A DNA stretch of 64,000 nt, taken from contig OY969585.1 in NCBI GenBank assembly GCA_963701295.1, positions 1,152,001-1,216,000 of the forward strand. Direction: 5' to 3'. Below are positions 29,572 to 36,114 of this stretch, in pieces (the first letter of the stretch is position 1; each line of letters begins with the position of its first letter). The translations under genes and the position numbers were made by a program. The DNA is from Ignavibacteriota bacterium. Its GTDB lineage: Bacteria > Bacteroidota > Ignavibacteria > UBA10030. The notes under the pieces are model-generated. The model made no database searches. It was not told the origin of the DNA and saw only the letters and a program-made list of their open reading frames with translations.

Positions 29572-29943
29572 ATGGTCATAAGTCGGTTTCCCTTAGGAAT
29601 ATTATTATTTTCAGTTCTCGCCCTGTATTGTTCATCAACGAAATCTCTTTCGGAGGCAGAAAAAGCCAAATTAGACCTACCATTGCTGCATTTGCTTACC
29701 GATAAACATGTAGAAGAAAACCGACTTGATATCTTAACACGATCCGATGGAACCAAGGAGTATGCTGTCATTGTTCAATCAGTACATCCAGAAGATATTC
29801 GTACACTAGGGATCACCATAAGCAGTGTTTTTGGAGATATCATTGTGGTACATGCCTCTCTTGAGGAGTTAAAAAATATCGTATCATTACCTTCAGTCCG
29901 GGCTGTACGAACCGGATCAAGAAGAACTATCCAACAGCATTAA
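29572..29943 (+). CDS. Putative lipoprotein homologous to the propeptide of the downstream S8 protease
   Basis: Signal peptide ending ALYC-SS; colinear similarity to about residues 25-120 of the 29954 protein. Confidence 0.75.
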   Translation: MVISRFPLGILLFSVLALYCSSTKSLSEAEKAKLDLPLLHLLTDKHVEENRLDILTRSDGTKEYAVIVQSVHPEDIRTLGITISSVFGDIIVVHASLEELKNIVSLPSVRAVRTGSRRTIQQH

Positions 29944-29953
29944 AAAGGATCCT

Positions 29954-32743
29954 ATGCCCACTTTGACGCGACATACCAGAATAGTCATCCTCCTGTTGAT
30001 TGTTATTTGTGCAGCTTTCGGTACAGATCTCACGGAAAAGCAAAGGTCAAAATTGCATCCGTTGTTTCGATCTTTAATAACAAATTCGTCACAGCCATTG
30101 TTAAAAACATCAAGCAGGTCGCACCGCATCACATCAACGGTTTCCAGCGATGGCACTGTTCGTTATGGTGCCATTGTGTATACTCACAACGTTGAAATGC
30201 TTCGCTCAATGGGAATACATGTTAATTCTGTACTTCCAGAGTTTGTCACTGCACAACTCACACCATCGGATATGGTGAGAGTTGCTGATCTTGAAAGCGT
30301 GAAGTTCCTTGATCCAGGCAAAGTACATCATCCACTGCTCGATGTCAGCGTCCCCGAAACTGGAGCAACACTTTTGCATTCTGGTTTTATCAACAATACT
30401 CCCTATAAAGGAGGCGGTGCGATTGTCTTGATCTATGATACTGGAATTGACTGGAAGCATTTAGATTTTCGCAATCCAACCGATACTACAAAGTCACGGA
30501 TACTTTTTATTTGGGATCAAACTTTAACACCGATTGGTAGTGAATTATCTCCATCTCCATCTGATGTTCCATCTCCATATGGTGTAGAATACACAAAAGC
30601 TCAAATCGAAAACGAATTCAAAGGCAATGCACCAGGTTTTGTGCGTGAAAAGGATACTCATGGGCATGGAACACACGTAGCAAGCACAGCCGCCGGAAAC
30701 GGATTCTCTTTCAACAATAAATATGTTGGGATGGCATCGGAAGCAGATATCATCGTCGTAAAAGGCGGAGATGGGACATTCTCCTCAACCTGGGAGATCG
30801 ATGGCCTGACGTATGCAAAAAATAAGGCAGCGGCATTGGGGAAACCCATTGTTGTTAATATGAGTCTCGGAGGTCAAGTCGGCTCACACGACGGAACAGA
30901 TCCAGATGAAGTTGCAGTGAACAATTTTGTTCAGAACGCCGGGCGCGTGGTGTGTATTGCAGCCGGTAATGATGGTGCAAATCCAATCCATATGAATGAC
31001 AGCGTAAGCAATGGATCGTCAACAACAATCTCTATCAGCGTTCCTTCTTATACTCCATACCCTTCTGGGAAAGATAACAATTATTTCGTTTTGGACATAT
31101 GGCTGCAAAACAATAAAGCATTAAGTGCAACAGTGACATCGCCAACAAATATTATTTTTTCCAGCCAATTGAATAAAGAAGTATACGGACCAAATCAATC
31201 AGACGGAACAATTGATATTTATGACAAAATTGATCCTCAAAATTCACATCGTCATTTACAAATTTATATTTACGATGCAACTTCTTCTGTACCTAAAACT
31301 GGTACATGGACTATTGCTTTAAATACAACCGATACCTCAGTTGCCTATGATGCATGGATAGATAGCGATCTTAACGGGCCATCGGCAGCTCTTCCAAACG
31401 GCAATACGAATAAGACAGTTGCTATACCCGGCACTGCAAACGGTGCAATCACAATCGCTTCATATGTAACAAAGTGGAGTTGGACGAGTTCAGATGGAAA
31501 CAGTTGGTGGTACGGCTCGACAGACCGAACCGGCAATATTTCAACATTCAGCAGTATCGGACCGACAGCTGATAACAGACAGAAACCAGACATCGCTGCT
31601 CCAGGCCAAGGTATTGTTGCTGCATTCTCTAGCAATGATACAACTGAATCGACATCAGACATAATTATTAATAATAAATATCTCCTTATGCAGGGCACCA
31701 GCATGGCAACTCCTCATGTGACAGGAGGTGCAGCATTGCTGCTCAGTGCAAAACCTTCGTTGACCGCTGATCAAATCAAGAATTACTTAATGAGTACTGC
31801 CCGCACTGATGCCTTTACTTCCAATGTTTGGAATTCATCATGGGGATTCGGCAAGATGGACATCTATAAAGCAATGGCGAGTGCAGTCGGTGCATCGGGC
31901 GCTAACCGTACATTGCTTTCTTATTATAGTGGAACAACAAATGGCTCCCTTCCCTTACCAAGCCCGGGTGGTAACCAGAAACTATCTATGCGTTTCACGC
32001 CTACTATCACCGGCAATCTTTCCAGCATTACCGTTACGATAAATGGAGGAACGAATGGAGTGAAAGGGACCGGCAACCTGAAGGTTACTGCTGCTCAAAG
32101 TGTTGCAGGAAGTGTTGATGGTATCCCAGGTCCTCAAATAGGAGACAGTATTCTCATTCCATTTAGCTCATTAAGTGTCGGAGTTGCAAATGTGATCGAT
32201 TTTTCATCTGCTGGAGTGTCTGTAACTTCGGGAACAGATTTTCAGATTGTTTTGGAAACAACGAATGTCGGAGATACTCTCCAACTTCTTCTAGATGATG
32301 GATCATTGAACATTGATCGTAGTTCGTCGTATCGGAATGGTTTGAAAGGACTTGGCTGGTACAATAGGGCCGATCCTAATTATGGATCCGGTAAACAACC
32401 GGATGACAATAATCTTCTTATCACAGCAGATATTGCAGTGCTAGCAACAGCAGTCGAATATAGTACTCCTGAATTGCCGACATCGTTTGTGTTGAAGCAG
32501 AACTATCCAAATCCATTTAATCCTACAACAAAGATCACATATATAATTCCAACCGCGAGCAAAGTTACATTGAAGATATTTAACCTGCTCGGACAACTCG
32601 TTGCGACTTTAGTTGATGAACAACAGGAAGCAAATACTTATGTGAAGGAATTTGATGCTTCCCGCTTGGCTTCCGGAACCTATTTCTATCAAATTAAGGC
32701 CGGGAACTTTAACTCCACAAAGAAAATGATTCTGATAAAATAA
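29954..32743 (+). CDS. S8 (subtilisin-like) serine peptidase with T9SS C-terminal domain
   Basis: Catalytic YDTGID, HGTHVA, GTSMATPHV; C-terminal FVLKQNYPNPFNP...KKMILIK. Confidence 0.93.
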   Translation: MPTLTRHTRIVILLLIVICAAFGTDLTEKQRSKLHPLFRSLITNSSQPLLKTSSRSHRITSTVSSDGTVRYGAIVYTHNVEMLRSMGIHVNSVLPEFVTAQLTPSDMVRVADLESVKFLDPGKVHHPLLDVSVPETGATLLHSGFINNTPYKGGGAIVLIYDTGIDWKHLDFRNPTDTTKSRILFIWDQTLTPIGSELSPSPSDVPSPYGVEYTKAQIENEFKGNAPGFVREKDTHGHGTHVASTAAGNGFSFNNKYVGMASEADIIVVKGGDGTFSSTWEIDGLTYAKNKAAALGKPIVVNMSLGGQVGSHDGTDPDEVAVNNFVQNAGRVVCIAAGNDGANPIHMNDSVSNGSSTTISISVPSYTPYPSGKDNNYFVLDIWLQNNKALSATVTSPTNIIFSSQLNKEVYGPNQSDGTIDIYDKIDPQNSHRHLQIYIYDATSSVPKTGTWTIALNTTDTSVAYDAWIDSDLNGPSAALPNGNTNKTVAIPGTANGAITIASYVTKWSWTSSDGNSWWYGSTDRTGNISTFSSIGPTADNRQKPDIAAPGQGIVAAFSSNDTTESTSDIIINNKYLLMQGTSMATPHVTGGAALLLSAKPSLTADQIKNYLMSTARTDAFTSNVWNSSWGFGKMDIYKAMASAVGASGANRTLLSYYSGTTNGSLPLPSPGGNQKLSMRFTPTITGNLSSITVTINGGTNGVKGTGNLKVTAAQSVAGSVDGIPGPQIGDSILIPFSSLSVGVANVIDFSSAGVSVTSGTDFQIVLETTNVGDTLQLLLDDGSLNIDRSSSYRNGLKGLGWYNRADPNYGSGKQPDDNNLLITADIAVLATAVEYSTPELPTSFVLKQNYPNPFNPTTKITYIIPTASKVTLKIFNLLGQLVATLVDEQQEANTYVKEFDASRLASGTYFYQIKAGNFNSTKKMILIK

Positions 32744-32805: not shown

Positions 32806-33385
32806 CATCATCACAAGTTGACTTGTGAGTTTCCCAAAGAAATATAACTCTAAAGGTAAAAAATCAAAAGTCAATTTGCCGTGATGTTGGAATTTCCGTC
32901 CCGACATAATATTGTCCAATTATTACCTTCTATTATTGTTGACAGAGTCAATTGGCTGAAAAACTTTTATAACACGTACAAGGGAGATCATGATCACCGA
33001 TTGACTTGCTTTTACTATGCCTCGTGTGTTCTTCTTGCCTTTGATATACATCAACATGTGCACACTTACTTAAGAATGATGGAGACGGGAACCACTATAA
33101 TAGTGTCTTCGTTCATATAAAGCGAAGATATGGACAATGATCAGTTTATACAAAGTAAGTCTATTTGAACAACGAATAATCGAGTGGTATTGTAAATCAC
33201 AATTCATAGAAGTAATAATTTGGTATATTCTTATGGAATATTATGTGACGATTATTGAATCAGAATATAACTCCAATCAAAGGAACGGTGTTTTTTACGG
33301 AAAAATCACAACAGGCTGGAAAGTGCTCATACTAAAATTTTGGCAGGATATCTGTTCTCTGAAAATATTTTGTGTTTTCTTCATA

Positions 33386-33793
33386 ATGGTGTTTTTTTGT
33401 ATTCTCAATATTTCTTGTTCTTCAAGCAAGCAAGAAACCCGCAGCGAACAAACCAATACTGCAAGTACACCTCTATTGCCAACGACACAAGAGAAAACGG
33501 CGGTCCAAGACAGCGTACCTTCAACGGCATCACTGCACTTTGCCCCAATTGTGAATGATACTGTAACCGGTGTACTGTACGTTACAGGGAACGAGCCGTT
33601 CACAAAAGTTGGATTGCAGACTTCATACGGGACAATGTATATCTTAAAATGCACAAAAGAGATCGAATCAGACTTACGTGCTATGCAAGGAAAGATTGTA
33701 AACGTTCACTATGATAGTATGGACCAAATTCCAGAGGGGCAAGCTCTGAAGGTTGTAAAGATTGAATATCTACAACAACGTACAGTTAAATGA
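33386..33793 (+). CDS. Putative lipoprotein upstream of the metalloprotease (start uncertain, 33323-33386)
   Basis: Hydrophobic stretch ending NISC-SSS, S/T/Q-rich linker, small beta-rich domain with GNEPF. Confidence 0.65.
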   Translation: MVFFCILNISCSSSKQETRSEQTNTASTPLLPTTQEKTAVQDSVPSTASLHFAPIVNDTVTGVLYVTGNEPFTKVGLQTSYGTMYILKCTKEIESDLRAMQGKIVNVHYDSMDQIPEGQALKVVKIEYLQQRTVK

Positions 33794-33825: not shown

Positions 33826-36114
33826 ATGCAGCATTATTTCGTTCGGCAGTTTATAGGTTTTATATTAAGTTTCTTGGTTTGCACAACACTTCATGCACAA
33901 CCCTTGAAACAAATAGCGACAGAGAAAGGCATGCTTCCGAACAGCTATCCGATTCATGGATCAGATCTACTCTGGAAACAGGAGCTTGAAGTACGAGAAT
34001 TTGTGGCACAACATCCGGAAGCTCTTCAATCGAGCGCATTGCACAAAACCGCATGGACGTTCGGAGTGGGTTCTGCCAAATCATGGTACGCAGATAACTT
34101 GATTACCCGTAACAACAGCGACAGATACCAAATATCTTCGACCTGCCGTGCTGTAGGCATCAACTGCTATATTTTTGTGGAAGACTCGAGCTGGAACACT
34201 CATGTGAATCAAGCAGCCGTTGATTCCATACGTATCTATTTTGACTCCAAAACACCTGCGAATCCTTCCAAGGGAATTTTTACTACTGATACGTCTGCCT
34301 TCGGTAATCCACCCGATGTCGATCATGACCCGAAGATTATAATTCTGCTCCTCAATATTAAAGATGGCTACAGCGGCAGCGGCGGTTTTGCCGAAGGGTA
34401 CTTCTATTCATTCAATGAAGTCAATCCTTTGACACCAGGATATAGCACAAGCAATTTCGCAGAAATGTTTTATATTGATACGAATCCGCTTGACCTTATG
34501 ACATCAGAAGGATTAGCATCCGGAATTTCAACACTCGCACATGAATTTCAACATATGATTCATTTTAACTACGCATCACTTATCAATGGAAAATCTAACG
34601 GAGATTTGACATTCATTGATGAAGGTTGTTCGGTACTCGCTGAAGTGAACTGTGGTTTCCCTATCTATAATCCAATACTCTACGCAAACGAACCCAACCA
34701 TTATCTCTTTGACTGGCGCAGCGGTGACATGACCCATGTGCTTAACGATTATTCAAGAGCTGCTCGGTTTTTTGTGTATATGCGGGATCAAGTTGGCATG
34801 AGTCTCTTTAAAAATATCGTCGCAAGTCCGCTCTATGGCGTACCACAAATTGATGCAGGTTTCCAGGTAATCGCATCTAGTTTTCGGTTTGCTGACATCC
34901 TAAAGAATTGGTTTGTCGCCAATATCTTAGATGATAGAACGTTTGATACAAAGTATGGATATCTCTATCCTAACCTTCCAAAATCAGTAGAACATACTTT
35001 TTATAATCCTACTGTTGTTCTCACAACCGACACTGTACAGAATTATGCAGTGGAATATCTTGCCTTCAAGAATGGTTCTCAATTGAGGACAACTATCACA
35101 TGCAGCAATTCTGCTTTAGTGGTAAAGGCAGTTGAGATCGGTCCTTCATCTAAAAGAGTTTTAGATGTAACAAATGGAGTAGAATTTTACGAACCTGAAT
35201 TTGGAACTACCTATAGCGAAGTTCATTTCATCATAATGAACACAAGTCCTACTACACAATACACATATACATATGCCGCGTCAGGTACCGGCGGTAATGC
35301 TGTAGAATTGAAATATGATTTAACTGAACCGACCGGTTATCTGTCTGGTGCGATAGGTGATACGGTATGTGTATGGTTCAATGGTGTTCCTGATGGAAAA
35401 CTTGATTCGGTGCGAGTGGCACTTCGAAGGGCTGGTATGATGACTGGCGGCGTTTGGACTTACACTGGAGTAGTACAACCCTCGCCGTTAGGCGCACCGC
35501 TTGCTGTACCGGTAACCGTAACAGTCACTCAAACTCCAAGTTATCCATATCCTGTACCGTGGCCAAACTGGGGTACAATCGATTTAAGAACGAAGAATAT
35601 CGATGCGAGTAAAGCGTTTGCCGTTGCTTTTATTGATCAAGGTGATTATGCGACACAACCGCGTGTTATGGTTACGGAATCCCCATTGCCAGGTGAGATT
35701 ACCAGTCTTACATATTCTCATGCTTCATCTTCACCAAACTGGTATTACCCCACTTCGAATGACACTGGAGACTCTGTCTATACTTATCTTATCCGGGCAT
35801 ATGTGAGTATTGATACATCGGGAGAAAAACAAAATGTCGAATTGACTCCCGCCTCTTTCGTTCTGGAACAAAATTATCCCAATCCCTTCAATCCTACTAC
35901 CACCATTAAGTTCCAAATATCATCGAAAGGATTTGTAACATTAAAGATCTATGATATGATCGGACGGGAAGTAGCCACACTGGTGAACGGATTCCAGGAA
36001 ACTGGAATACACGATGTGAAGTTTGATGCCTCAAACCTGCCAAGCGGTGTCTATCTCTATCGTATCACTGCCGGCACATATGCAGAAACGAGGAAACTCG
36101 TGCTCATTAAATAA
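33826..36114 (+). CDS. Zinc metallopeptidase (HEFQH, M30-like) with T9SS C-terminal domain
   Basis: Signal peptide; TLAHEFQHMIH and downstream DEG; FVLEQNYPNPFNP...RKLVLIK. Confidence 0.88.
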   Translation: MQHYFVRQFIGFILSFLVCTTLHAQPLKQIATEKGMLPNSYPIHGSDLLWKQELEVREFVAQHPEALQSSALHKTAWTFGVGSAKSWYADNLITRNNSDRYQISSTCRAVGINCYIFVEDSSWNTHVNQAAVDSIRIYFDSKTPANPSKGIFTTDTSAFGNPPDVDHDPKIIILLLNIKDGYSGSGGFAEGYFYSFNEVNPLTPGYSTSNFAEMFYIDTNPLDLMTSEGLASGISTLAHEFQHMIHFNYASLINGKSNGDLTFIDEGCSVLAEVNCGFPIYNPILYANEPNHYLFDWRSGDMTHVLNDYSRAARFFVYMRDQVGMSLFKNIVASPLYGVPQIDAGFQVIASSFRFADILKNWFVANILDDRTFDTKYGYLYPNLPKSVEHTFYNPTVVLTTDTVQNYAVEYLAFKNGSQLRTTITCSNSALVVKAVEIGPSSKRVLDVTNGVEFYEPEFGTTYSEVHFIIMNTSPTTQYTYTYAASGTGGNAVELKYDLTEPTGYLSGAIGDTVCVWFNGVPDGKLDSVRVALRRAGMMTGGVWTYTGVVQPSPLGAPLAVPVTVTVTQTPSYPYPVPWPNWGTIDLRTKNIDASKAFAVAFIDQGDYATQPRVMVTESPLPGEITSLTYSHASSSPNWYYPTSNDTGDSVYTYLIRAYVSIDTSGEKQNVELTPASFVLEQNYPNPFNPTTTIKFQISSKGFVTLKIYDMIGREVATLVNGFQETGIHDVKFDASNLPSGVYLYRITAGTYAETRKLVLIK

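Follow-up and report, generated by a model that had tools for sequence, protein, structure and literature searches.

A conserved predicted lipoprotein homologous to the prodomain of the adjoining type IX-secreted subtilase in an Ignavibacteriota genome: a candidate membrane-tethered inhibitor

The window studied here is a stretch of 64,000 nucleotides (nt) from an Ignavibacteriota bacterium (GenBank assembly GCA_963701295.1, contig OY969585.1, positions 1,152,001 to 1,216,000 of the forward strand); positions given below are counted from its first letter. It contains a small gene for a predicted lipoprotein of 123 amino acids (aa), directly followed by the gene of a 929-aa subtilase of peptidase family S8 that bears a sorting domain for a type IX secretion system (T9SS). 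The 123-aa protein is an old, conserved, free-standing duplicate of the prodomain of the neighboring protease. The features of the locus, with the evidence for each in brackets, are:

29572..29943, + strand: small gene, 123 aa, predicted lipoprotein and free-standing homologue of the adjoining S8 prodomain (BLASTP, profile, fold, family)
29572..29631, + strand: residues 1-19, a predicted signal peptide of the lipoprotein type, followed by Cys20, to which the lipid is predicted to attach (sequence, family cysteine, Lgt and LspA in the genome)
29632..29916, + strand: body with propeptide fold, residues 21-115, two N-terminal helices followed by four strands and two helices (AlphaFold2 model, structural matches)
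29917..29940, + strand: C-terminal tail, residues 116-123, corresponding to the stretch with which a prodomain fills the active site, with Gln121 or Gln122 as putative P1 (structural alignments, tail-length statistics)
29944..29953, + strand: 10-nt spacer with a purine run resembling a ribosome-binding site (RBS) for the protease gene (sequence)
29954..32743, + strand: S8 subtilase, 929 aa, CspB/CspA-type; its catalytic domain contains a beta-rich insertion, and a T9SS type A domain forms the C-terminus (Pfam, TIGR, model)
30023..30337, + strand: the protease's own prodomain, about residues 24-128, with a putative cleavage site after Leu128 placed by alignment (alignments, model)
32504..32731, + strand: T9SS sorting domain of type A, residues 851-926 (PF18962 and TIGR04183, both exceeding their cut-offs; PorU and SprA in the genome)

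Both open reading frames lie on the + strand, each preceded by a purine-rich, RBS-like stretch, and the 10-nt gap between the two genes (29944-29953) was as the initial annotation had given it. That annotation had marked 29572..30320; the small gene is fully covered by this span, whereas the prodomain on the protease side runs slightly further, to about 30337. Since the small gene has its own RBS-like site, start and stop, its product would be a separate one and not cut from a precursor. Co-transcription with the protease gene is suggested by the 10-nt spacing, which is the basis of this proposal, a scan for promoters and terminators having remained at chance level (22 sites for 18.2 expected and 7 for 4.8 expected).

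The small protein and the N-terminus of the protease were 22% identical over 113 columns in BLASTP (E 2e-8). Once the signal peptides were removed, the local alignment score was 89, whereas 5000 shuffles averaged 27.8 and never exceeded 61. Four motif pairs had been quoted in the initial annotation as colinear between the two proteins, and all four were present and in order. An HHalign comparison of the family profile with the prodomain profile spanned 124 columns, from end to end of the small protein, with a probability of 99.7% and E 3.4e-26. The similarity first noticed is thus significant in pairwise as well as in profile alignment.

The family comprised 60 of 85 candidates in 90% clusters. 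Among 50% representatives there were 104 matches, all of 69-193 aa with the exception of one chance match to repeats, a protein of 1230 aa (P0131), which we rejected as a member. As delimited by these searches, it is an unannotated family of ~100 clusters at 50% identity, made up of ~120-aa proteins. The long relatives of the small protein were the S8 zymogens themselves, no search having been aimed at fused or longer forms; an apparent fusion in genome G021 (open frame of 1103 aa) turned out to be two genes.

The AlphaFold2 model of the small protein had a mean confidence (predicted local distance difference test, pLDDT) of 90.7 and showed an alpha/beta protein with four long helices, one of them the signal peptide. 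When it was compared with 48,161 representative chains, each of the 17 top matches was either a subtilase prodomain or POIA1, a stand-alone inhibitor (Z 8.2-5.0, root-mean-square deviation (rmsd) 1.7-3.7). The best one had Z 8.2 and rmsd 2.4 over 74 residues, POIA1 had Z 5.3 and rmsd 2.2 over 60 residues, and unrelated folds appeared from Z 4.6 down. ACT-like domains matched at Z 4-4.6; the ferredoxin-like arrangement is a common one. These Z values are middling by themselves; it is because the sequence homology points to the same fold that we accept it. Foldseek ranked the prodomain of CspB first (E 0.033) and Aeromonas ORF2 second (E 0.088, rmsd 8.3), with no match under E 0.001. In the ESM Atlas, 13 of the 30 neighbors of the small protein carried the label CspB_prodomain.

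Family databases had little to say on the small protein. Neither Pfam nor NCBIfam had a family for it, and the Pfam profile Inhibitor_I9 (PF05922) matched neither this protein nor any of 82 members at E 0.01; these 82 are chosen full-length small proteins, from whose alignment the residue statistics below were also taken. The Csp prodomain profile (PF18425) gave weak matches in 3/82 small proteins (best E 4e-4), none of them the 123-aa protein. Of 34 sequences scanned, one small protein and five neighboring prodomains scored 17-20 bits with it, the cut-off being 25. A sequence search of the PDB with two family profiles returned nothing under E 0.07, a prodomain chain (8c4x_B) appearing at E 0.73. 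On the model, the small protein has the subtilase-propeptide (I9) fold, a four-stranded sheet with two helices, and the proposal of a free-standing propeptide homologue was borne out by the structural matches as it was by the profile alignment.

The ESM Atlas also held a cluster of 85 proteins (representative of 102 aa, mostly Bacillota where known) annotated with CspB_prodomain only. Such proteins might be fragments, or else another phylum may possess Csp prodomains as proteins of their own.

A cysteine was found after the hydrophobic stretch in 80/82 members, with G, A or S occupying position -1 in 57 of the 80, and both Lgt and signal peptidase II (LspA) are encoded in the same genome. The lipobox of the 123-aa protein itself, however, is non-canonical (A-L-Y-C20, with Tyr at -1), so that its lipidation at Cys20 is a family-level prediction and the initial label of lipoprotein holds as a prediction. 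The lipoprotein surface-export motif of the Bacteroidetes type (PMC5080379), here searched as K-(D/E)2 or Q-A-(D/E)2, was present in 3/80 small proteins; having been described for Bacteroidetes, it may not apply here. If that export rule holds for this lineage, a periplasm-facing location would be slightly favored.

The small gene is under purifying selection. Among nine same-genus copies, the median ratio of nonsynonymous to synonymous substitution rates (dN/dS) was 0.22 for the mature small protein (33 usable of 36 pairs), and it was 0.17 for the protease prodomain (28 pairs). A tree was calculated from 65 small domains and 76 prodomains over 99 columns, after removal of eight rows that were frameshifted, truncated or read through. 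In this tree the 123-aa protein fell inside a starred group of nine small proteins and the prodomain of its neighbor inside a starred prodomain group; the duplication therefore predates the genus. The free tree contained three small-protein groups, which suggested multiple independent origins; these were not supported, since a tree with a single origin was unrejected and scored higher (approximately unbiased (AU) test, p 0.84).

Within the genus, the median dS was 0.63 for the small gene, 0.42 for the prodomain and 1.02 for the first catalytic part (positions 29572-31000 and the same-genus loci). The higher value of the last may reflect an exchange of the catalytic part by recombination.

In the 929-aa protein, Peptidase_S8 and Por_Secre_tail both scored above cut-off in the Pfam/NCBIfam scan. 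The catalytic triad D162/H238/S583 and the oxyanion residue N339 are intact, and they were invariant in 120 aligned relatives. Clostridial CspA, CspB and CspC were the best structural matches (E 1e-33 to 6e-30) of its model (pLDDT 88.8). The protease possesses a complete prodomain of its own and is in this respect unlike the propeptide-less partner of an ORF2-type protein. PorU and SprA, components of the T9SS, are encoded in the same genome. A second CspB-type T9SS S8 protease, which has no small partner, is also found there (G000:C1:2434323-2437346, identical to L111:1824-4847), as is a third, different S8 protease at G000:C1:868071-868967.

Conservation of the gene pair, named as a check in the initial annotation, was likewise found. 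Of 76 listed small copies from 251 genomes of the order, 70 (92%) adjoin an S8 protease: for 55 the coordinates put a prodomain match immediately downstream, a further 15 proved on reading to adjoin an S8 gene, and six had none. In the genome collection the S8 gene lay directly downstream at 19/19 loci, and among metagenome loci at 24/29, the remaining five ending within 261 nt. These sets overlap and include relatives, so the counts are not independent. A single-protein query found matches in 14/41 related genomes, all within the family of the window, while a broad profile did so in 96/251 genomes of the order; this survey also gave 31 weaker matches outside the listed set, and the two pieces of one frameshifted gene were merged in it. 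A sample of the phylum gave matches in 34/401 genomes, and a small class-level search gave no additional copies. Source records name metagenome-assembled genomes of Ignavibacteria and Bacteroidota. Flanking genes varied while the linkage persisted across several families, and at three loci of another family the small gene lay downstream of the protease. Three same-genus genomes without the small gene also had no detected CspB-type protease. One metagenome locus (L222) was excluded as a copy of the small gene, its match being to a prodomain. In a distant family, the partner S8 protein has 1958 aa, about double the usual length (L060:3782-9658, genome G389).

The C-terminal tail is the part of the small protein that would be expected to bear on the active site. 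In structural alignments, residue 121-122 of the model coincided with the last residue of several solved propeptides, equivalent to Leu128 of the neighboring prodomain. Position 121, taken as P1 with an uncertainty of one residue since the register comes from structural alignment, was reached by 81/82 members; 30 had their last residue at this position, and for 69 the chain ended no more than three residues past it. At P4-P1 the most frequent residues were N-Y-P-Q in the small family and in the prodomains alike. Among 25 dereplicated pairs, and within tree groups, the tail of a small protein was nearer to that of its own neighbor than to those of others (p 0.02), whereas its body was not nearer to the prodomain of its own neighbor (p 0.12). 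A window test placed the likeness in the tail and two strands (p about 0.01-0.03) and found none in the helices. This test was devised after the data had been seen, and we regard the co-similarity it suggests as weak.

We consider it fairly probable that the small protein is a membrane-tethered inhibitor of the neighboring protease. We infer this from the fact that the CspB prodomain blocks its enzyme in trans, that the tail is kept to P1 in the small family and that N-Y-P-Q is shared with the prodomains. The fold, the conserved linkage and the purifying selection on the small gene also speak for it, and potempins (PMC9890683) and SUB1-ProM (PMC6993865) are precedents for such a function. For CspB, the full-length prodomain supplied in trans was reported to restore folding and to block the active site, and removal of its residues P3-P1 or P4-P1 to open the active site (PMC3567191). 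Both proteins of the pair would be exported by Sec. The protease would fold with its own prodomain, cleave it and leave through the T9SS, whereas the lipoprotein would be retained on the membrane and bind enzyme stripped of its prodomain near the envelope. Its sheet would pack on the catalytic domain and its C-terminal tail fill the non-prime side of the active site, much as the CspB prodomain does in trans. The protease would thus be curbed by a brake of the cell's own making, and the envelope spared its action.

Several observations speak against such a role. The tail of the 123-aa protein, R-T-I-Q, differs from the H-H-P-L of the neighboring prodomain. At the presumed helix-capping position P9, the register of which depends on the P1 number that we take to apply to the propeptide of subtilisin BPN', D or E was present in 101/120 prodomains, compared to E in 35/82 small proteins and Arg113 in the 123-aa protein. 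The acidic capping residue of the BPN' propeptide is Glu69 (PMC6993865). CspB folding is highly specific for its own prodomain (PMC3567191), whereas identity between the small protein and the prodomain is just 22%. The co-similarity of the tails was gone at 45% dereplication (p<0.05 in 0/12 draws, n 11-16), one strand did not share it, and several windows had been tested. Frameshift-broken copies of the small gene stand beside a full-length protease at L012:1498-1873 (genome G004), at G605:C10:90781-91132 and at loci L059 and L077; they may reflect decay or assembly errors. Finally, six small copies (in genomes G483, G523, G452, G564, G477 and G035) have no adjoining S8 gene, and no CspB-type S8 protease was found, with the queries used, in these genomes, three of which were rated 100% complete. 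The term self-protection used in the initial annotation is qualified by these orphans and by the many proteases of this type that are partnerless: 18 of those listed have no small partner of their own, among them the paralogue in the same genome; one of the 18 comes second in a tandem, after a paired protease, and a few are located close to the end of a contig. Two of the orphan tails are shortened, one is altered and the others look intact; the shortened and altered ones fit decay after loss of the target.

Four of the orphans, loci L143, L145, L146 and L147 (genomes G483, G564, G523 and G452, respectively), belong to one subfamily and occupy the same site at which genomes G553 and G570 keep the protease. 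Three of these four have shortened or altered tails.

Other functions have to be weighed against inhibition of the neighbor. The small protein could be a helper acting in trans in folding, processing or hand-over to the T9SS, similar to Aeromonas ORF2, with inhibition incidental. Prodomains of the CspB type do fold their protease in trans (PMC3567191), the I9 inhibitors of yeast and Pleurotus were reported to be chaperones (bioRxiv 10.64898/2026.05.05.722857), and ORF2 came second in the Foldseek ranking. Yet the protease already contains a complete prodomain and 18 listed relatives do without a partner; the extra copy would therefore be dispensable for folding and an obligatory chaperone role unlikely. 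PotA, a lipoprotein inhibitor of Tannerella forsythia, moreover left the maturation of its protease unaffected (PMC9890683), and we regard the helper role as a whole as unlikely. Tethering without blocking as the main role, that is a receptor which holds or displays the mature protease at the surface or on vesicles, would make use of the predicted lipid anchor and would tolerate the poor retention of the helix-capping residue in the genus. Karilysin, once secreted, is indeed captured by PotA at the surface, but in the complex the enzyme is inhibited (PMC9890683). Against a tether, 81/82 members retain to P1 the tail that would block the active site, PorU provides the usual T9SS anchoring route in this genome, and the Bacteroidetes-type surface export motif is confined to the 3/80; we judge this explanation very unlikely.

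The orphan copies could be taken for a general envelope guard, directed at foreign subtilases of competitors or predators and retained after loss of the cell's own protease: all six are full-length or nearly so, no CspB-type S8 was found in their genomes with the queries used, and four sit at one syntenic site in three genera. On the other hand, an S8 gene adjoins 92% of the listed copies, the three same-genus genomes without the small gene lack a detected protease too, the tail is shortened in at least two orphans and altered in a third, as expected after target loss, and SUB1-ProM of Plasmodium is selective for its cognate enzyme (PMC6993865). A guard function of this kind appears distinctly unlikely to us. 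The orphans, together with a ferredoxin-like fold common enough to give the ACT-like matches, might also point to an unrelated envelope function, the linkage being a leftover of tandem duplication; since linkage has outlasted changes in flanking genes and gene order across several families, and tail length has been maintained, this is highly improbable. As to a truncated remnant of a second protease gene, which the initial annotation had named as what would overturn its proposal, tandem S8 duplicates do occur (G011) and a few copies are frameshifted. The ~100 clusters at 50% identity are nearly all of small proteins, however, their signal is of a different type (Cys in 80/82), dN/dS is 0.22, and the small proteins cluster together in the tree and not with the prodomains of their own neighbors. 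A remnant is thus refuted as far as sequence allows, and extremely improbable.

Beyond the single pair, a wider version of the tethered-inhibitor reading would see in these proteins bacterial subtilase inhibitors with a lipid anchor, a family of single origin derived from a duplicated CspB-type prodomain, with tails co-adapting to the companion protease and orphans guarding against foreign proteases. We put this forward as speculation, and it is rather doubtful in its full extent.

The closest parallels in function would be the stand-alone inhibitors of the I9 type. POIA1 of Pleurotus, PBI2 of yeast, SPI-1 of Arabidopsis and SUB1-ProM of Plasmodium are described as stand-alone propeptide-like inhibitors (PMC6993865, bioRxiv 10.64898/2026.05.05.722857). 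Like these (PBI2 also being named IB2) and like MIC5 of Toxoplasma, the small protein comes from a separate small gene, has the propeptide fold in its model and carries a tail ending near P1, of sufficient length to fill S4-S1 in the register taken here; the Pfam I9 profile does not recognize it, and inhibition is here proposed by analogy. SUB1-ProM shares two further traits with it, a gene adjoining that of its subtilase and a signal peptide (PMC6993865). The listed inhibitors are eukaryotic and soluble, whereas the small protein is bacterial with a predicted lipid anchor. They are described as having no significant sequence similarity to propeptides, while the small protein is a clear paralogue of the prodomain of its neighbor.

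In gene layout, the pair resembles the potempins PotA-E of Tannerella forsythia, above all PotC, which inhibits the S8 protease mirolase, each encoded as a lipoprotein of 98-132 residues directly upstream of a T9SS peptidase (PMC9890683). The literature agreed with the initial annotation, which had named both the potempins and Spi, the propeptide analogue of Streptococcus pyogenes. The likeness to potempins lies in the layout and the predicted anchor, not in the fold: potempins are beta-barrels (oligonucleotide/oligosaccharide-binding (OB) or up-and-down) that inhibit by loops, whereas in the model of the small protein the fold is that of an alpha/beta propeptide, and inhibition would come from the C-terminal tail. 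They were also shown to be surface-exposed, while for the small protein the periplasmic side would be slightly favored if the export rule applies. With the Csp prodomain (PF18425; CspB of Clostridium perfringens, PDB 4I0W) the small protein shares the modeled fold, and the neighboring protease is of the Csp structural type. The CspB prodomain, however, is part of the zymogen, whereas the extra copy here is a separate gene, with matches below the Pfam cut-off where scored. ORF2 of Aeromonas sobria (PDB 3WQB), the external chaperone-inhibitor of the protease ASP, is bacterial, encoded by an adjacent gene and places its C-terminus in the active site, with a half-maximal inhibitory concentration (IC50) of 84 nM; ASP, in contrast to the protease here, has no propeptide and needs ORF2 to fold (PMC5638518). 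The gene of Spi, the SpeB inhibitor, adjoins that of its protease, and as in the pair studied here the protease possesses a propeptide itself (PMC2873492). SpeB is a C10 cysteine protease of another fold and differs in this from the S8 pair. Spi is intracellular and not known to be a lipoprotein, unlike the predicted lipoprotein here.

The concept of a stand-alone propeptide inhibitor is already known; the family itself is unannotated. Among the paper listings searched, which cover few subscription journals, none dealt with a lipoprotein that duplicates the prodomain of a subtilase. If the small protein is indeed a tethered inhibitor, it would represent a bacterial, membrane-anchored branch of the stand-alone propeptide inhibitors, the subtilase examples described in the sources available to us being eukaryotic save ORF2. 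The potempin principle, by which a cell protects itself while it secretes through the T9SS, would then also hold for a lineage that is Ignavibacteria-like and uncultured. A prodomain in cis and a copy in trans for one enzyme would offer a system to separate chaperone from inhibitor function, and may show how a degradable propeptide turns into a lasting inhibitor.

A second pair of a similar kind lies directly downstream. An unrelated small predicted lipoprotein at 33386-33793 (+ strand; the longest open reading frame starts at 33137), with an invariant Cys and a G-N-E-P-F motif, is directly followed at 33826-36114 (+ strand) by an M30-like HExxH metalloprotease with a T9SS tail. This lipoprotein had no Pfam or PDB match; in the ESM Atlas, DUF5818 came up at 0.82, and everything else was an unnamed cluster at no more than 0.87. 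From its sequence pattern it seems beta-rich, and our guess would be a potempin-like inhibitor. Should this and the tethered-inhibitor reading both be true, cassettes of a lipoprotein inhibitor plus a T9SS protease would be general beyond Tannerella and involve several folds. The second lipoprotein had matches in 24/65 genomes of the family, and in the 20 loci read the metalloprotease homologue was directly next in 16, with three at a contig edge and one followed by another gene.

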